A stretch of DNA of 64,000 nucleotides from Candidatus Iainarchaeum sp. (lineage in GTDB: Archaea; Iainarchaeota; Iainarchaeia; Iainarchaeales; 1-14-0-10-31-34): the NCBI GenBank assembly GCA_040755695.1, contig JBFMAK010000003.1:101879-165878 (forward strand). The letters run 5' to 3'. The notes beneath the pieces are model-generated. The model did no database searches. It was not told the origin of the DNA and was given only the letters and a program-made list of their open reading frames with translations. A program made the translations under genes and the position numbers. Positions 8,388 through 16,418 of the stretch are shown piece after piece; positions within the stretch are counted from its first letter, which is position 1; the number at the start of each line of letters is the position of its first letter.

Positions 8388-10622
8388 TTGAACAAAGTCT
8401 TCCTTGCACTATGCATTCTAACACTAACCCAATTAATAGGCACTGCAAGCGCCTTAAGCGTAACAATATCAATTAATTCAGGCGCACAATACACAAACAA
8501 CAACACAGTAACTTTAACCCTAACATCAGACGATCAAAGCGTAAACTGCGATTACGCAAACGACTCAAATTCAAATTACAGCGGAAGCCCAACGCCCTTC
8601 ACTGCAACAAAAAGCTGGACATTAAGCGCAGGAGACGGCGCAAAAACTGTTTATTATAAATGCACTGATGTGAACTTAAACACAGCAGAAGCAAACAATT
8701 CAATAACACTGGACACAAGCGCTCCAACAGTGAATATTTTGCAGCCAAATGGAGCTACAACCTCAAACACTGTGTCCTTTGACTTGAACGAAACAGGAAG
8801 CGAAATAAACTTAAGCACAGTAACAGTGCTGCTCAACGGAGCAGAATCATCCTTCAATTCCTCAAACTGCACCTTAGACGGAGGGCTTAACTACCACTGC
8901 TCTTACACCGAAACAAAAATAGACAAAAACGGAAATTACACAATTGACGTTAATGCCCAAGACAACGCAGGAAATTTGGGCACTGCAACATCCACTTTCA
9001 CTTACACTGACTCAACTCCTCCAAGTGCTCCCACAAATTTTACTGCAACAGGGGGACACCTTCAAATAAGCCTTAATTGGACTGCAAACACTGAATACGA
9101 CCTAAACGGATACAATATTTATTTCAGTACAACACAAAACTTTGACACTAATGCTCAAACACTTTTGATTTTTACAACCTCAAACTCTTATCCCCACATA
9201 TACCTTCAGGCAAGCACAACATACTACTACAAAATAAAAGCAAAAGACAAGACAGGCAATGAATCAACAGCAAGCAATGCAAACGCAACAACAAATGCTC
9301 CTGATGGAACGGCCCCAACAACAGCCTATTCAGGGCCTGATGACGCATGGCATAATTCAAATGCAAGCATCACATTAACATGCAGCGACACAGGAGGAGC
9401 AGGATGCAAATTAATCAGCTACAGAATTAATTCAGGTTCATGGAATTATGTAAGCGGCCCAAGCTCGGCCTTCACCATAAGCAATGAAGCAGACAACCTG
9501 CTTGAATTCTATTCAACAGACAATTCAGACAACAATGAATCAATGCAATCAAAGCACGTGAAAATAGACAAGACAGTTCCAAAGCCTTCACTTACAGCAA
9601 CAGGCTACAGCTCAAGAATAGAATTAACCTGGAGCGCTATAACGGACTCCCTTTCAGGGTTAAAAGAATATTTCGTGAAAAAGAATGATGAGGCATGGAT
9701 AAGCAATGCCAGAAGCACAACATACAATTTTGCTGGCTTAACAAACGGCACATTGTACAACTTCAAATTAAAGGTTGTAGACAACGCAGGAAATGAAACA
9801 GAAAGCGACCCTGTCTCTGCAACGCCAACTTCATCCTCAACTTCAGGCAGTTCAGGCGGGGGCTCAAGCGATACAACTGCCCCTAATTTAAGCTGGACCT
9901 TCCCAGCAGACGCAAACTATGAATTGAAAGATTATAATATTACATTAAAAGTCAATGCATCAGACTATGACAGCGGGCTAGCAATAATAATTTTATCATA
10001 CAGGAAGACAGACCAGAACACTTACACTAGAATCACAAATATTACTGAGCCAACAAACGGAACAAACTCCTATAAATGGGAGCTTTCCTCAGACATGAAT
10101 TCAGGAACACACGAATTAAAGGCCGTAGCAAGAGACGAGGCAGGAAACATTGCAACAAAAACAATTACAATAAAAATTACTTTGCCAGCAGCAGTAAATC
10201 CAGCAAAGCCAGCAGACCAAAATAAGGTTGAAGACAAAAACAAGACAACAGGAACAGAAGACAAAAATAAAAGCAAAGAAACAGTAGGCACAGCAGTGGG
10301 AACAGAAAACCAGCTTGAAGGCACTGCAGGGAAAGGAGAAGAAACAACAAATCCCTTCACAGGCCTTGCTTCAGGATTAATGAAAAACATAATCCCAGTA
10401 ATTGGAATAATTGTAGTGCTTGTAGTAATAGCATTCGTTGCAGTAAAAGCAAAGAACAGGGTAGGGCGCCTTGGAAGGGACGACTTGGTCGGAGTCAATG
10501 CAAGAATAGAAACAGGATTTCATGGAATAAGCTCAAAGCCAAGCCCGCCAGGAAGCAAGACATTAGAAATAATCAAGAGAGAAATAGAGGCAGAGCACAC
10601 AGGAAAATTCGCAAGAAAATAA
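8388..10622 (+). CDS. Secreted cell-surface protein with FN3/Ig-like repeats, N-glycosylation sequons and a C-terminal TM anchor
   Basis: Signal peptide MNKVFLALCILTLTQLIGTASALS. The protein is Thr/Ser/Asn-rich, with repeated DNAGN-type Ig-like motifs and an FN3-like segment. A TM helix (IIPVIGIIVVLVVIAFVAV) lies near the C-terminus. Confidence 0.7.
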   Translation: MNKVFLALCILTLTQLIGTASALSVTISINSGAQYTNNNTVTLTLTSDDQSVNCDYANDSNSNYSGSPTPFTATKSWTLSAGDGAKTVYYKCTDVNLNTAEANNSITLDTSAPTVNILQPNGATTSNTVSFDLNETGSEINLSTVTVLLNGAESSFNSSNCTLDGGLNYHCSYTETKIDKNGNYTIDVNAQDNAGNLGTATSTFTYTDSTPPSAPTNFTATGGHLQISLNWTANTEYDLNGYNIYFSTTQNFDTNAQTLLIFTTSNSYPHIYLQASTTYYYKIKAKDKTGNESTASNANATTNAPDGTAPTTAYSGPDDAWHNSNASITLTCSDTGGAGCKLISYRINSGSWNYVSGPSSAFTISNEADNLLEFYSTDNSDNNESMQSKHVKIDKTVPKPSLTATGYSSRIELTWSAITDSLSGLKEYFVKKNDEAWISNARSTTYNFAGLTNGTLYNFKLKVVDNAGNETESDPVSATPTSSSTSGSSGGGSSDTTAPNLSWTFPADANYELKDYNITLKVNASDYDSGLAIIILSYRKTDQNTYTRITNITEPTNGTNSYKWELSSDMNSGTHELKAVARDEAGNIATKTITIKITLPAAVNPAKPADQNKVEDKNKTTGTEDKNKSKETVGTAVGTENQLEGTAGKGEETTNPFTGLASGLMKNIIPVIGIIVVLVVIAFVAVKAKNRVGRLGRDDLVGVNARIETGFHGISSKPSPPGSKTLEIIKREIEAEHTGKFARK

Positions 10623-11061: not shown

Positions 11062-13833
11062 ATGGCTTTGAATGCAATAACAATTATAGGCGCAGGACCT
11101 GTTGGGTTAAAGACAGCAATAGAGTTAAAGAAGGAAGGCTGGGACCCAAAAGTAATAGAAGAACACACTGAAATTGGGGTTCCAGAAAACTGTTCAGGCC
11201 TCATAAGCGTTTCAGGAGTAAAAGAAACAAAATTAGACGTAGAAGACATTACAGTCAACAAAGTCAAAGGCGCAATAATCAAAGCGCCTAATGGAATTGA
11301 ATTAAAAATAGAGAGAAGCAGACCAGTGGCATATGTTATAGAAAGAAAGAAGTTAGACAAAAAGTTTTATGCCGAAGCCCTCAAAAAAGGAATTGAGGTA
11401 AGGACAGAGACAAGGCTCATAGACCTAAGGAAAGACACCTTATTCCTGCAGTTCAGGCAGAGAGGCGAAATGATGAAAACAGAGCTTCTCATAGGAGCAG
11501 ACGGCGTGAACTCAAAAATAAGAAAATTAATGAATTTAGGCGCGAACCCAGAGCACTTTGTCCTCACAACGCAAGTGAGAGCAAAAGGCTCATTCAACAA
11601 AGACTTCGTGGAATTAAGTTTTGGAGAACAGTACAAAGGATTCTTTGCGTGGACAATTCCAGAGAGCAGTACAACAGCAAGGATTGGGGTTGGAGTAAAG
11701 CCAGGCATGAACCCAAAAACTGCCCTTCAGAAATACATGAATGGAATGAAAGTAGAAGTATTAAGCGAAAGCTCTTCACTGATTCCAATAGGAAAGCCCC
11801 TGAGAGAAATTTCAACAGAAAAAATTCTTTTACTGGGAGACGCTGCCTTTCAAACAAAAGCAACAAGCATTGACTATGAAGAGCCAATAATAATATTAGA
11901 AAACGGTCTGATTAAGACTGTTAGGATAGGAGAATTAATAAATAATGAAATGAAAAAAAACGAGAACAATATAAAAACTATCACTGGAAGCCCTGAAATA
12001 AAGCTATTGGAACTAAAAAAAGAAATTAATTCTTTTTCTCCAATGAAAAATGGCTCAGAACCCAAATTTAGAAAAATAGCAAACATTCTAAAACATTCAA
12101 TAAAAGAAGACTTGTATGAAATTATTCTCGAAAAAGGCTATAGAATAAAAGCAACTGAATCACACAGCATAATTACTTTGGGGCAAAAACAACTTGAAGA
12201 AAAGAAGGTTTCAGAACTAAAAGCAAACAAAGACCATTTATTAATGTGCACACGCCTGCCAAACAATGAAATACTAAAAGAAATAAACATCATTGAATTT
12301 ATTTTAAGAGAAAAACCAGAATTAATCCCCTTAATTAGAGTTAAAGGGGGAAGAAAATACATTTTTTCAAAACAAAGTGAAGTACCCAAAAATTTGTTGA
12401 CAGCTTACTGGTATGAAGATTCAATTCCATTAAAAGTTTTTGTTGAAAAAGGTATAATACCAAAAGATGCAAGAATAAGTTACTTAAAATCAGGTTTAAA
12501 AATAAAAAACGGGCTTCAAATCACGCCGGAATTATGTAGGCTGTTAGGGTATTATGTTGCAGAAGGCAGTTGTAAAAAAGGAAAAAATATTAGTTTGACT
12601 TTCGGCAAACAAGATATTGAGAACGGAATAGTAGAAGACACAATTAAATGTATTCAATATGTTTTTGAATTTAAACCAACAAAATATCAGTACAAAAAAA
12701 ACCCTTTAACCAAAAAGATTTCAGCTGTAACAATAACCTTTGGTGGTTCATTACTTTCAGAACTTTTCTCTAATATTTTGAAAGGCGGAAGAAGCGCCAA
12801 AACAAAAGAAGTACCTTTCATTATTTTTAATGTGCTAGAACACCTTAAAATTGAATTCTTAAAGGGTTATCTCAACGGCGATGGAACAATAAGAATAAGA
12901 GAATCAAGTAAAAGAAAGAACTGGAATGCAGAAATTTCTTGCAAGACGGTAAGCAGAAAACTTGCAAGTGACTTAATAACCCTTTCTCTTCAGATGGGAA
13001 TGCTTCCAAGTATAGAAGAGTTTTCTGCTAAAGAAAGAAAAATCTATGGCAAAAAAATTGTTGAAAGCAATGGTTACAAAGTGGCTTTCTCAAAAAAAGA
13101 GGACTTACTGAGACTTTCAGAAGTTTTCCCAAAAAAAACAAGTGAGTTAATTGGTTTTCTTAATGAAATTAAATCAAAATCAACTTCGGGCATACCAAAA
13201 GAATATTTTGCCTTCACTTCAAACCAAAAATATGCTACAGAACTAATAGAAGAATTTGGGCCATCAATATATACAGCTTACAATAAACTTGATTCTAAAA
13301 GAGTTTCCTTTGCAATGCAAAAAATGATAACAAAAAACGAAAGAATTCAATTAATACAAAATTTAATTCAATCAAATATTGCAGTATTTAAAATAAAAGA
13401 AATAAGAAAAGTTAAACCAACCAATAACGAAGTTTTTGATGTTCACATCCCAGAAACAAACATGTTTGTTGGAGGGCTTGGAGCAATACTCCTTCATAAT
13501 ACAGGCGGGGGCATTATTACAGGAATGATGGCAGCAGAAGCAGCAGTAAAGACAATAAGCAATTACTACAAGAAAAAAAAGCCTTTAACTGAATACAGCA
13601 AACACTTAAGCCATTTAAACAAGGAATTAGAATTGCACTGGAGGATAAGAAAATACTTGAATTCACTGAACGACAAGCAATTGAACGAACTGTTCATCAA
13701 ACTAAAGAAAGCAAGAATTGAAGAATTCCTTGCAGAGCACGGCGACATGGACAGGCCCTCAAAATTCATGGGCAAAATCCTTACAACCCCAAGGCTGTGG
13801 AGCCTGGCACCATTAGCATTAAAGCTCAGGTGA
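11062..13833 (+). CDS. Geranylgeranyl reductase (FAD-dependent, archaeal lipid saturation) interrupted by an intein
   Basis: IIGAGPVG FAD dinucleotide motif and ELLIGADGVNSKIR motif. The GGR signature GDAAxxxxPxTGGGI is split as GDAAFQTKAT | intein | TGGGI. Confidence 0.85.
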   Translation: MALNAITIIGAGPVGLKTAIELKKEGWDPKVIEEHTEIGVPENCSGLISVSGVKETKLDVEDITVNKVKGAIIKAPNGIELKIERSRPVAYVIERKKLDKKFYAEALKKGIEVRTETRLIDLRKDTLFLQFRQRGEMMKTELLIGADGVNSKIRKLMNLGANPEHFVLTTQVRAKGSFNKDFVELSFGEQYKGFFAWTIPESSTTARIGVGVKPGMNPKTALQKYMNGMKVEVLSESSSLIPIGKPLREISTEKILLLGDAAFQTKATSIDYEEPIIILENGLIKTVRIGELINNEMKKNENNIKTITGSPEIKLLELKKEINSFSPMKNGSEPKFRKIANILKHSIKEDLYEIILEKGYRIKATESHSIITLGQKQLEEKKVSELKANKDHLLMCTRLPNNEILKEINIIEFILREKPELIPLIRVKGGRKYIFSKQSEVPKNLLTAYWYEDSIPLKVFVEKGIIPKDARISYLKSGLKIKNGLQITPELCRLLGYYVAEGSCKKGKNISLTFGKQDIENGIVEDTIKCIQYVFEFKPTKYQYKKNPLTKKISAVTITFGGSLLSELFSNILKGGRSAKTKEVPFIIFNVLEHLKIEFLKGYLNGDGTIRIRESSKRKNWNAEISCKTVSRKLASDLITLSLQMGMLPSIEEFSAKERKIYGKKIVESNGYKVAFSKKEDLLRLSEVFPKKTSELIGFLNEIKSKSTSGIPKEYFAFTSNQKYATELIEEFGPSIYTAYNKLDSKRVSFAMQKMITKNERIQLIQNLIQSNIAVFKIKEIRKVKPTNNEVFDVHIPETNMFVGGLGAILLHNTGGGIITGMMAAEAAVKTISNYYKKKKPLTEYSKHLSHLNKELELHWRIRKYLNSLNDKQLNELFIKLKKARIEEFLAEHGDMDRPSKFMGKILTTPRLWSLAPLALKLR
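11866..13500 (+). other. Intein (545 aa) with LAGLIDADG homing-endonuclease domain, inserted in GGR
   Basis: Starts with Ser (SIDYEE...). Block B TESHSIIT, LAGLIDADG blocks LLGYYVAEGS and LKGYLNGDGT, and terminal ...VFDVHIPETNMFVGGLGAILLHN followed by +1 Thr (TGGGI). Confidence 0.8.
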
Positions 13834-13861
13834 AAAAGGAAATTTTTTAGTTACTTACAAT

Positions 13862-13945
13862 TGAATTTGCAGAGCAAATTCCTTTTTTTCTTTTAGTTAA
13901 ATTTTTCAAGCTTTGCTTGAAAATTTTCAAAGCCCTGCTTTGAAA
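13862..13945. terminator. Three consecutive hairpins plus T-runs between convergent GGR and tRNA genes
   Basis: gaatttgc-agag-gcaaattc followed by cttttttt; ttttcaagc-ttt-gcttgaaaa; tttcaaagc-cct-gctttgaaa followed by tattttctttttt. Confidence 0.4.
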
Positions 13946-13974
13946 TATTTTCTTTTTTGTAAAAAGAAAAAGTT

Positions 13975-14070
13975 AGCCCCGAGGAAATTTGAATCTGCGG
14001 ATTCAAAAACCTCGTGTCTGATAGCCCCGAGGAAATTTGAATCTGCGGATTCAAAAACCTCGTGTCTGAT
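13975..14070. repeat. Two tandem 48-bp direct repeats, each carrying a degenerate copy of the tRNA-Gln 3' end
   Basis: agccccgaggaaatttgaatctgcggattcaaaaacctcgtgtctgat occurs at 13975-14022 and 14023-14070. Its reverse complement ends ...TTCAAATTTCCTCGGGGCT, versus ...GTTCGAATCTCCTCGGGGCT in the tRNA. Confidence 0.8.
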
Positions 14071-14142
14071 AGCCCCGAGGAGATTCGAACTCCTGTCATC
14101 TCCTCCAGAGGGAGACATCCTTGACCGCTAGACTACGGGGCT
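14070..14142 (-). tRNA. tRNA-Gln (anticodon CUG)
   Basis: Minus-strand sequence AGCCCCG-TA-GTCT-AGCGGTCAA-GGAT-G-TCTCC-CTCTGGA-GGAGA-TGAC-AGGAG-TTCGAAT-CTCCT-CGGGGCT-A folds as a cloverleaf with all four stems paired. Anticodon loop is CT-CTG-GA. A1:U72 is typical of archaeal tRNA-Gln. CCA is not encoded. Confidence 0.85.
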
Positions 14143-14217
14143 GGATTAAAACAAATTAGTGGAAATAAAATTAAAAATTGTTGTTTAAGAAACACTGAAT
14201 AAATTAGTGACTAAATG

Positions 14218-14694
14218 TTAAGTGACAACGCATATGGCTCCATTTTTTTGTTTGTCACTGAATACTTGATTAGGCGTAAAATATTTAAGGCTTGAGTGCG
14301 GAGTGTTGTTGTACTCGCGCTGGAAGCGCGAGAGTAAGCGGTTAGCGTGTTTGAGGTTTTGAACCTCGAACTCATTCAAGAATCGTTTTATTTTTTTGAT
14401 GACTGCTTCTGCTTTTCCGTTGCATTTGGGATTGTGAATGCGTGTGTGAATGTGTTTGATGCCTAATAGACTGGCATCAAAGTTTTTGTGGTATTGTCTA
14501 CCATTGTCAGATAACAAGGCTTTGAATCCCCCCGTTTCTCGGATTGCTTGTTGTAGGTTGTCTATTGTGTTTGCAAGCGTTGCATGAGAATATGCTTGCA
14601 GTGCAAACAGTTTTCTGGATGCATCATCTTCATAGAATGAGAAGCAACAGTGTACTCCATCCAAAATGCGTTTTCTGCCCCAATCCGTATGCAT
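14218..14694 (-). CDS. Transposase C-terminal part (integrase core rve domain, DDE)
   Basis: HTDWG ... LLSDNGRQY ... NPKCNGKAEAVIKK match the D, D, E regions of rve transposases. The reading frame probably continues upstream of the first Met. Confidence 0.65.
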   Translation of the reverse strand: MHTDWGRKRILDGVHCCFSFYEDDASRKLFALQAYSHATLANTIDNLQQAIRETGGFKALLSDNGRQYHKNFDASLLGIKHIHTRIHNPKCNGKAEAVIKKIKRFLNEFEVQNLKHANRLLSRFQREYNNTPHSSLKYFTPNQVFSDKQKNGAICVVT

Positions 14695-14778
14695 TAATGA
14701 TAAAGCGTGCCTGCGCTCGTAACGCTTGCATTTTGTCTTTGGTTTGGGTTTTGGAGGAAACCAACGCTTCTTATAGCG

Positions 14779-15111
14779 TTATACTGTCCTCAAGCAAACC
14801 TTTCCCAAAGCTATCCATGCAAGCGTGCTGGACTTTCCTTGCACCAGCAAGGCTCTTAACCTGTTCAAGACAGGTTGCACTGTTTTGTTCCAGATTCTTT
14901 TGGCCTTTCTCTTAAACCTGATTGGTTGACCAGACAATGTGCGGTTCAACCAACGCGAAAGAGTCTTTCGCGGAATCCGCAAGACTCTATCTAACTCTCT
15001 CTGGCTAACCTGGCCAGAAACAAGTCTGGCGACTGCTTTTTCAACAATATCATTGCTATATTTTATAGTGGGAACCTCCATTCCGTTACTCAAAAAATGG
15101 AGTTCCCACAA
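14779..15111 (-). CDS. Transposase N-terminal HTH part (orfA)
   Basis: VSQRELDRVLRIPRKTLSRWLNR is a helix-turn-helix. It is in a different frame from the rve ORF, so a frameshift, programmed or pseudogenising, is implied. Confidence 0.5.
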   Translation of the reverse strand: MWELHFLSNGMEVPTIKYSNDIVEKAVARLVSGQVSQRELDRVLRIPRKTLSRWLNRTLSGQPIRFKRKAKRIWNKTVQPVLNRLRALLVQGKSSTLAWIALGKVCLRTV

Positions 15112-15222
15112 CTTTAAAACCCGCGTCTTAAAGTGGGGGCATATCCGCTGTCATGCAACAACTAAAGAGATTTATTAATAATTTGCTATCAATATAATTT
15201 AACAAGTGTAAAAAGGCTGTTT

Positions 15223-15681
15223 ATGGATAAATCAAAAATTGATGAACTTATACGCAAGGCAGGGTATGAGATTAAAGTAGACAAAATACCAGAAGGATAT
15301 ACGCCCGGAATTATTATTAGAATTCAAAAAGGAAAAACCCATGCTTTTATTGATATTCATATTGAAAATAATAAGGCGTATTTTGGAAAACTCCACATAG
15401 GAAATGTAGAAAAAGGAGTGTGGCACAAGCCTGGGCATATATCAGCTGCAAAAGCTATTGATCTCATGCTCTATACAACAGAAAGAGAACTAAAAAAAGA
15501 ACGGGTTAAAATAATTCAAGGATGGCCTGGCCCACAGCTTGAGAGATTGTTAAGGAGAAGAGGTTACAATTTAAAAAAACAAGAGTATTATGGTTTTGAT
15601 ATAAAAAAAAGGATTGGAAGAAAAAATCCGCTTCCACTTATATTACAGAGCAAAGTTAAAAAAGCGATTAAAAAAATTTAA
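15223..15681 (+). CDS. Hypothetical basic protein
   Basis: 152 aa, Lys/Arg-rich, no recognised family. Lies immediately beside the IS. Confidence 0.4.
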   Translation: MDKSKIDELIRKAGYEIKVDKIPEGYTPGIIIRIQKGKTHAFIDIHIENNKAYFGKLHIGNVEKGVWHKPGHISAAKAIDLMLYTTERELKKERVKIIQGWPGPQLERLLRRRGYNLKKQEYYGFDIKKRIGRKNPLPLILQSKVKKAIKKI

Positions 15682-15713
15682 TAATTAATTAATTCTCCGA
15701 AAATTTAGGTTTT

Positions 15714-16418
15714 TTATTTGCCGAACCTTCTCTGCCTGTCGTTGAATTCGTTTATTGCTGTCGCCAAGTCTTCTTCCGAGAATTCAGGCCAGTATTTTTC
15801 AATGAAGTAGAGTTCAGAGTAAGAGGACTGGTATGTCAGGAAACCGCTCAATCTTTTCGTGCCTGATGTTCTTATTATGAGGTCAGGGTCAGGGAAAGCC
15901 GAATAAAGATAGTTCTTGAATTTTTTTTCTGTGAGCGAAGCCAGGCTGATTGCGTTGTGCTTGAAGTCCCAGGCAAGCCTTTTTGCTGCGTCAATTATTT
16001 CTGCCTGGCCGTTGTAGCCTAAAGCCATGTTGATTACCTTCTTCCTGTAGTTTTCAGTGAACTCTTCTGCCCTCCTCATTTTATTCTGGAGTTTCTGCGG
16101 CAAGAGATGAGTCCTTCCAATGAACTTCAATCTTAACTGGTTTGCAGTGAACTTGTTTGTGCTCCACACCTTGTCTAATTCTTTCTCGAAGATCTTGAAC
16201 AAAATTTTTAGTTCAGCTTTATTTCTCTGCAAATTCTCCAGTGAAAGCGTGTAAAAAGTGCCTGCCTTGATTTTAGGGTAAGAATTAAGCCAGTCTAATA
16301 CATGCCATGCTTTTTCTGTTCCCATCCTGTAGGATTCAAGTAATGAAACTCCGGCCTTGATTGCGTAACGCCTGTTTCCGTCAGGAATAAAAGCAATAGA
16401 CTTCAATTGCATTAGCAC
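15714..16418 (-). CDS. uppS: Undecaprenyl/polyprenyl diphosphate synthase (cis-prenyltransferase)
   Basis: IPDGNRRYA, DLIIRTSGTKRLSGFL, YSELYF and WPEF ... RRFG signatures. Confidence 0.85.
   Translation of the reverse strand: MLMQLKSIAFIPDGNRRYAIKAGVSLLESYRMGTEKAWHVLDWLNSYPKIKAGTFYTLSLENLQRNKAELKILFKIFEKELDKVWSTNKFTANQLRLKFIGRTHLLPQKLQNKMRRAEEFTENYRKKVINMALGYNGQAEIIDAAKRLAWDFKHNAISLASLTEKKFKNYLYSAFPDPDLIIRTSGTKRLSGFLTYQSSYSELYFIEKYWPEFSEEDLATAINEFNDRQRRFGK

Follow-up and report, generated by a model that had tools for sequence, protein, structure and literature searches.

The stretch of DNA analysed here (the window) comprises 64,000 nucleotides (nt) of contig JBFMAK010000003.1 of Candidatus Iainarchaeum sp. 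(GenBank assembly GCA_040755695.1), and carries on its forward strand a gene of the geranylgeranyl reductase (GGR) family that is interrupted in frame by an intein with a LAGLIDADG endonuclease domain. The two flanking parts of the host protein (N- and C-extein), the splicing blocks of the intein and its LAGLIDADG motifs were mapped as follows, with positions given in the window and intein residues numbered from the nucleophile, Ser1:

11062..13833, forward strand: open reading frame (ORF) of the GGR-family precursor with in-frame intein, a single open frame of 923 amino acids (aa) plus stop
11062..11865, forward strand: N-extein, 268 aa, GC 40.5%, ending in …LLLGDAAFQTKAT
11866..13500, forward strand: intein, 545 aa, ~62 kDa, composed of a Hint splicing domain, a LAGLIDADG endonuclease and accessory regions
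11866..11940, forward strand: block A, with the Ser1 nucleophile and SIDYEEPIIILENGLIKTVRIGELI
12136..12177, forward strand: block B, GYRIKATESHSIIT, with Thr97 and His100 (TxxH)
12526..12570, forward strand: LAGLIDADG motif 1, PELCRLLGYYVAEGS, with the predicted catalytic Glu233
12844..12888, forward strand: LAGLIDADG motif 2, LKIEFLKGYLNGDGT, with the predicted catalytic Asp339
13426..13476, forward strand: block F, NEVFDVHIPETNMFVGG, with Asp525
13477..13500, forward strand: block G, LGAILLHN with His544-Asn545; the +1 Thr, encoded by the first C-extein codon, extends to 13503
13501..13833, forward strand: C-extein, 110 aa plus stop, GC 41.1%, beginning with TGGGIITGMMAAEAAV…
11836..11865 and 13501-13530, no strand assigned: left and right halves of the putative homing site

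The precursor is identical to P0001, annotated at NCBI as 'MAG: geranylgeranyl reductase family protein [Candidatus Diapherotrites archaeon]'. The insert, SIDYEE…ILLHN, corresponds to precursor residues 269-813, and the C-extein downstream of it reads TGGGIITG…. Coordinates and borders are exactly those given in an earlier note, made from the sequence alone, for a 545-aa insert in a split GGR signature, and all the blocks (A, B, F, G) and both LAGLIDADG motifs that it listed were found at the mapped positions. Within the window, extein and intein searches matched this ORF only, with no second GGR paralogue and no second intein.

In an exhaustive HMMER search with the intein over 1.84 billion representatives, inteins at the same site of GGR-family proteins formed a tight group scoring 365-472 bits. 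Including the present one, there are 14 intein-containing protein clusters, with the insert at the identical site in all that were aligned; the 13 further clusters of this architecture have lengths of 857-927 aa, one more being a 686-aa fragment, stem from NCBI, JGI, ENA and Logan records and, where labelled, are assigned to Diapherotrites or Micrarchaeota. They share the junction pattern …K-A-T / S-[IV]-D…L-H-N / [TS]-G-G-G, in which, as in all sequences below, a slash marks the junction between extein and intein or the insertion point. Residue counts are given over 13 same-site inteins, which are the full-length ones.

The Pfam profile Intein_splicing (PF14890) matched the insert from end to end with 69.5 bits (E 3.7e-19, cut-off 35.8), and the profiles for the N-terminal (TIGR01445) and C-terminal (TIGR01443, intein residues 522-545) splicing regions matched with 36.9 bits (cut-off 24.5) and 17.7 bits (cut-off 15.6), respectively. 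The best NCBIfam match of the intein was NF045703, intein-containing tetraether lipid synthase Tes (84 bits, E 4.9e-24). In the alignment of same-site inteins, Ser1, Thr97, His100, Asp525, His544 and Asn545 are invariant in 13 of 13, as are Asp3 and Glu6 of block A; block B, Thr97-Glu-Ser-His100, represents the Thr-x-x-His of class 1 inteins, the invariant set of block F consists of Val523, Asp525, Thr531, Phe534, Gly536 and Gly537, and the +1 extein residue is Thr in 12 cases and Ser in one. Using phmmer, the intein was matched to PI-PkoII and to the TFIIB mini-inteins 5o9j and 5o9i (E 2e-21), with the block A region aligning to 5o9j from its residue 5 onward and the block F region aligning to the C-terminal half of the mini-inteins. 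An AlphaFold2 model of the intein (predicted local distance difference test, pLDDT, 87; predicted template modelling score, pTM, 0.88) has as its nearest PDB structures, matched over the full length, PI-PkoII (2cw7; E 1.7e-28, template modelling score, TM, 0.64), TliVMA (7qss) and PI-PfuI (1dq3); it also aligns to TFIIB, RadA, VMA and CDC21 intein structures, with its halves corresponding to mini-inteins and free LAGLIDADG enzymes. The identification as a LAGLIDADG intein, as proposed in the earlier note, is therefore borne out by Pfam and NCBIfam profiles above cut-off and supported by the predicted fold. Judged by sequence and model, the insert has every feature of a class 1 Hint-domain intein, and it should be able to splice.

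Within the intein, LAGLIDADG_3 of Pfam matched residues 328-405 with 33.2 bits (cut-off 22.5). The two LAGLIDADG helices end in acidic residues (…GYYVAE233GS and …GYLNGD339GT) and are found in the model at residues 221-233 and 325-339, each followed by beta-hairpins, as in the alpha-beta-beta-alpha-beta-beta-alpha core of these enzymes; this part of the model matches intein endonucleases as well as I-Tsp061I, I-OnuI and I-AniI. The acidic residue of motif 1 is present in all 13 same-site inteins (Glu in 12, Asp in P0012) and the Asp of motif 2 in 12, so that the pair Glu233/Asp339 is kept in 12 of 13. In P0012, a shorter same-site intein of 517 aa, motif 2 has Asn and the +1 residue is Ser; its endonuclease is likely dead, a candidate for the decay expected within the homing cycle.

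When joined, the exteins form a 378-aa protein of ~42 kDa, which matched TIGR02032 (GG-red-SF) over residues 8-287 with 190.5 bits (cut-off 158.8); the N-extein carries a FAD_binding_3 match. It contains the GGR motifs GxGxxG (IIGAGPVG), Cys44, R95KKLD99 (RxxxD) and LLGD260 (LxGD), and at residues 194-200 the cavity motif FFAW197TIP200, in which, compared to PxxYxWxFP, Tyr is replaced by Phe and Phe by Ile; most of the GGR motif columns are invariant in 133 aligned sequences. Across the junction, the joined exteins align without gaps to the Thermoplasma acidophilum enzyme 3oz2 (lllgdaafqtkattgggi vs MLVGDAARLIDPITGGGI). On these grounds the host protein belongs to the GGR family, family-level membership being what the profiles and motifs demonstrate.

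As a stand-in for the spliced extein, the intein-free protein P0017, which is 93% identical, was modelled with AlphaFold (pLDDT 95.7). The top structural matches of this model are the GGRs 3oz2 (TM 0.85) and 3atq (TM 0.84), clearly apart from other flavoproteins (TM <= 0.72). The insertion point, 268/269, maps to the loop between the LxGD strand and turn (255-262) and a helix (273-293) that starts at the Gly-Gly-Gly of the C-extein; the intein sits 8 residues past the Asp of LxGD. In a review of archaeal GGRs, LxGD is assigned to interaction with flavin adenine dinucleotide (FAD) and PxxYxWxFP to the catalytic cavity (PMC10821996). Of the terms used for the insertion site in the earlier note, FAD motif is right and catalytic motif is loose, since the cavity motif lies elsewhere. 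The solved GGRs, Ta0516 of T. acidophilum (3oz2) and the Sulfolobus acidocaldarius enzyme (3atq), have the same fold as the spliced host protein and the intein-free P0017 and share with the host protein GxGxxG, the conserved Cys, RxxxD, the aromatic-W-x-x-P cavity motif and LxGD, but are only about 20% identical to it, and neither has an intein.

A search with the joined exteins returned hundreds of intein-free proteins of about 380 aa, the best of them P0017, which has 378 aa and aligns to the joined exteins at 93% identity with zero gaps. The contig that encodes it, L001, shows synteny with the window and 82-92% nucleotide identity to it; aligned as DNA, the two match up to 11861 and again from 13501, with the break at the intein borders. 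Extein halves that failed to run on contiguously in intein-free GGRs would speak against an intein, as had been pointed out in the earlier note; this is clearly not the case, because the alignments to P0017 and 3oz2 are free of gaps and the break in synteny with L001 falls at the borders.

A non-functional origin of the arrangement, as an inserted domain that does not splice, as a disrupted pseudogene or as an assembly chimera, has to be weighed given that the window derives from a metagenome-assembled genome, but we regard it as scarcely credible and reject all three forms of it: all 923 codons are open, the borders fall exactly at the nucleophile and at the HN/T signature, the same architecture recurs in 13 other clusters from four sources (NCBI, JGI, ENA, Logan), all splicing residues are invariant, and the flanks are collinear with L001.

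From established intein chemistry and the residues present, we infer the following course of splicing. Translation would yield the 923-aa precursor, in which Ser1 would start the reaction with an N-O acyl shift at the Thr268-Ser269 bond, helped by the block B residues Thr97 and His100. The resulting ester would be attacked by the +1 Thr in a transesterification, and cyclisation of Asn545, aided by His544, would free the intein of ~62 kDa. A final O-N shift would generate a native peptide bond and leave the 378-aa enzyme of ~42 kDa with its loop, …GDAAFQTKAT-TGGGI…, restored. Because the FAD-interaction loop is split before splicing, the precursor should be inactive or unable to bind FAD correctly.

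This position in the FAD-interaction loop, with its presumably inactive precursor, is also what speaks for a co-opted intein that acts as a post-translational switch, with splicing that depends on factors such as temperature, pH, FAD or substrate and controls FAD binding of the prenyl reductase. There are reports of conditional splicing in other archaeal inteins, such as that of Pyrococcus horikoshii RadA (PMC5790916), and the same-site inteins are at least as conserved as their host proteins, with a mean pairwise identity of 46% as compared to 39%. However, related host proteins number at least 726 at E <= 1e-10, as opposed to 14 clusters with the intein, and the closest relative lacks it, so the host is evidently not dependent on it; conserved cofactor motifs are, according to an intein survey (PMC4760082), the usual place of insertion for selfish inteins; and with Ser and Thr as nucleophiles, redox control through a catalytic Cys is not available. 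We consider a switch very improbable.

For the endonuclease, the joined-extein sequence …AAAGCAACA/ACAGGCGGGGGC… is the putative target. The free intein or the precursor would cut intein-less alleles site-specifically at the joined-extein codons, and repair from an intein-containing copy would spread the element (homing). Indirect signs of such activity come from base composition, a patchy distribution and the sequence of the flanks.

The GC content of the intein is 30.1%, as compared to 40.5% and 41.1% for the exteins, and at third codon positions (GC3) it is 0.229, as compared to 0.414. Across the window, the 22 long ORFs have a mean GC3 of 0.398 with a standard deviation (SD) of 0.045, which places the intein 3.7 SD lower, and none of them falls below 0.31 except the precursor itself, which contains the intein. 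At two other loci the GC3 values of intein and extein are 0.40 vs 0.59 and 0.46 vs 0.75.

A neighbour-joining tree of the host protein was computed from 13 spliced exteins and 120 intein-free orthologues, without support values. The intein-containing alleles are scattered over this tree, and each of P0001-P0008 has a close intein-free sister (e.g. P0001/P0017, P0006/P0105, P0008/P0124). For the most divergent host pairs, the distance between the inteins is about half of that between the exteins; among the inteins, the nearest relatives share about 50% identity, with synonymous sites saturated. Most transfer seems to have taken place between related hosts, and wider jumps to have been occasional.

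Of the 30 nt that precede the insertion point (11836..11865; 10775..10804 in L001), 9 differ between the window and L001, as compared to 3.4 differences per 30 nt on average over the gene (permutation P ~0.002 for this segment). Seven of these substitutions are synonymous and two change amino acids (A262G, T268S); the empty site of L001 reads GDAGFQTKAS and the family consensus GDAAFQTKAT, so that both changes lie on the side of the empty allele. Co-conversion in the course of homing or resistance of the empty site could account for the cluster, which is only suggestive of either.

Taken together, we find it probable that the element is a canonical class 1 intein that is competent to splice and houses a LAGLIDADG homing endonuclease with two motifs, recently or currently active, in a GGR-family gene of Diapherotrites. 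Its anatomy and exact borders, the seamless empty allele, the recurrence at a single site, the conservation of both catalytic sets, the patchy distribution and the foreign base composition are shown here, whereas splicing itself and continued cutting by the endonuclease are inferred. Several observations weigh against recent or current activity. The gene has a denser cluster of substitutions than the one beside the site, with 11 differences in a segment around nt 454-485. At L003, a locus in an already AT-rich genome, GC3 is equal in intein and extein (0.285 and 0.29), and the AT-rich, Lys- and Ile-rich character of the intein could in part result from weak selection instead of recent arrival. 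The intein and extein trees, both simple neighbour-joining trees without support values, are broadly congruent at the level of clades and agree within clades, and vertical descent with repeated precise loss could explain much of the pattern.

An alternative is an intein that still splices while its endonuclease has ceased to cut. Such a passenger would be inherited vertically, would occasionally be lost through recombination with empty alleles, and would stay intact solely because the host enzyme would be destroyed if splicing failed. The recovery of the same main clades in both trees fits a passenger, as does the loss of the motif 2 Asp in at least one member of the family, P0012, and the presence of the empty allele P0017 in the sister lineage, where it has not been invaded. 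Selection for splicing alone, however, offers no explanation for the invariant endonuclease core with both LAGLIDADG helices and Glu233/Asp339 in 12 of 13; an endonuclease domain that has become inactive is usually subject to decay or deletion, yet no mini-intein form, expected at roughly 520-560 aa in total, occurs among the 120 best extein matches or the top intein matches; and the GC3 offset from the host gene at three of the four loci argues against long residence. We therefore consider a passenger unlikely, and retain the recently or currently active homing intein as the preferred interpretation.

Below the same-site group, the HMMER search showed a drop to inteins of 29-38% identity, with an XPD-like helicase, topoisomerase VI subunit A, the radical S-adenosylmethionine (SAM) enzyme Tes, a DEAD-box helicase, a DegT aminotransferase and TFIIB as their hosts. 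P0148, P0152, P0153 and P0163 (hosts Tes, topoisomerase VI A, DEAD-box helicase and TFIIB) all have Ser1 followed by Ser or Thr at +1, and the GGR intein and these relatives look like a lineage without catalytic cysteine.

The closest solved structures by sequence are the TFIIB inteins of Methanocaldococcus jannaschii and M. vulcanius (5o9j, 5o9i), which cover both Hint halves; P0015 and P0163 served as full-length examples. They share with the GGR intein the block A pattern S-[IV]-D-x-x-E-P-[IL], Ser1, Thr+1, the C-terminal LHN and a LAGLIDADG endonuclease nested at the same place, but differ in host and site (…PxTY/T[IR]xD… vs …QTKAT/TGGGI…) and are only about 27-32% identical over the full intein. 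The GGR intein, at 545 aa and with large extra regions, is also longer than the MjaTFIIB intein of 335 aa (PMC8966425). The DNA polymerase intein of Thermococcus kodakarensis, PI-PkoII (2cw7), resembles it in size (537 aa) and in the combination of a Hint domain, a LAGLIDADG core and accessory DNA-binding regions, but has a different host and a sequence identity of 20%. Endonuclease activity has been shown experimentally for PI-PkoII, TliVMA and PI-PfuI, whereas for the GGR intein it is predicted from sequence and model.

The Tes inteins (NF045703; P0148, P0151) are 32-33% identical to the GGR intein over the full length and also have Ser1 and Thr+1. They likewise interrupt an archaeal isoprenoid-lipid enzyme at a cofactor motif, and the C-extein of Tes also begins with TGG (…LAHN/TGGEP vs LLHN/TGGGI); their host, however, is a radical SAM enzyme, not a flavoprotein, and the N-extein flanks are unrelated. 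To trace both sites to one origin by way of the TGG flank is speculation. We give little credence to the pair of bolder proposals that either conditional splicing of the GGR intein gates FAD binding and isoprenoid saturation in reduced DPANN cells, or the Ser1/Thr+1 lineage jumped between Tes and GGR by way of the /TGG flank; such a jump, if true, would be a natural example of homing endonucleases gaining new target genes.

In the open-access full-text literature, which is weak evidence on this point, we found no description of an intein in a geranylgeranyl reductase or digeranylgeranylglycerophospholipid reductase, nor of this allele in Diapherotrites or DPANN archaea. The sole co-occurrence of intein and geranylgeranyl reductase, in a Nodularia genome paper, is unrelated, and the enzyme goes unmentioned in the main text of the 2015 intein survey (PMC4760082). 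Domain annotations already flag these intein-containing GGR proteins automatically. What is new is the host gene, the site and a small intein family in DPANN archaea; in every respect tested the element is a canonical class 1 LAGLIDADG intein. As set out in the same survey, intein hosts are dominated by ATP- and DNA-binding proteins of replication and repair (PMC4760082). To call this class of host uncommon, as the earlier note did, is fair, but it is not the sole case from a lipid pathway, as NCBIfam curates the intein-containing Tes.

The find is of modest interest and leaves the understanding of inteins unchanged; it extends the range of intein hosts to a flavoprotein from isoprenoid metabolism and adds another intein in a cofactor-binding loop. 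With 14 clusters and hundreds of empty alleles, one of them 93% identical and syntenic, it offers a natural system for the homing cycle in uncultured DPANN archaea. An intein with Ser1/Thr+1 and no catalytic cysteine could interest protein engineers, and the endonuclease would represent a new rare-cutting specificity. For annotation, 'GGR family proteins' of 870-930 aa are to be regarded as precursors of enzymes of ~380 aa.

The substrate of the host enzyme was considered separately. The earlier note had called it a membrane-lipid saturation enzyme, of which GGR family membership stands (TIGR02032); a membrane-lipid substrate is not established, because the scores against the digeranylgeranylglycerophospholipid reductase equivalogs NF041080 and NF041160 (79.8, cut-off 580, and 77, cut-off 780) are far under both cut-offs. 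A cis-prenyltransferase gene (UppS-type, PF01255, 213.9 bits) lies at 15714..16418 on the reverse strand, 1.9 kb downstream of the GGR-family gene, and in L001 PMT_2 and GtrA genes are found between the two. Because of these neighbours, polyprenol or dolichol is equally possible as substrate. The neighbourhoods of three other intein-containing loci, examined for a clue to the substrate, differ and yield none.

Beyond the intein, the region between the GGR and cis-prenyltransferase genes (13845..15720; 11150..15407 in L001) also differs between the two contigs. L001 has a 4.2-kb block without counterpart in the window, which encodes a 106-aa ORF, a PMT_2 glycosyltransferase, a GtrA-like protein and an amino-oxidase-type flavoprotein; in its place, the window has tRNA repeats, an insertion sequence (IS) remnant and a 152-aa ORF (15223..15681) without Pfam match. 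The S8 peptidase gene of L001 (16226-19699) is absent from the window. The repeats consist of tRNA-Gln(CTG), read from 14142 to 14070 on the reverse strand, followed directly by two 48-nt tandem units, with the whole region spanning 13974..14142. The last ~20 nt of each unit mimic the 3' end of the tRNA (ttcaaatttcctcggggcta vs ttcgaatctcctcggggcta), and the units look like stacked att-type remnants of elements integrated into the tRNA. Adjoining them, a transposase is split over two ORFs on the reverse strand (14218..15111), with a helix-turn-helix part at 14779..15111 and an rve/rve_3 integrase core at 14218..14694, and is probably a decayed or frameshifted IS element. Upstream of the GGR-family gene, at 8388..10622 on the forward strand, lies the gene of a 744-aa secreted or surface protein with a Ser/Gly-rich linker and a C-terminal transmembrane anchor. 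Its position is conserved in L001, where the counterpart has repeated fn3/Big-type domains; the middle of the gene is divergent, with the DNA alignment to L001 lost from ~8472 to 9575.

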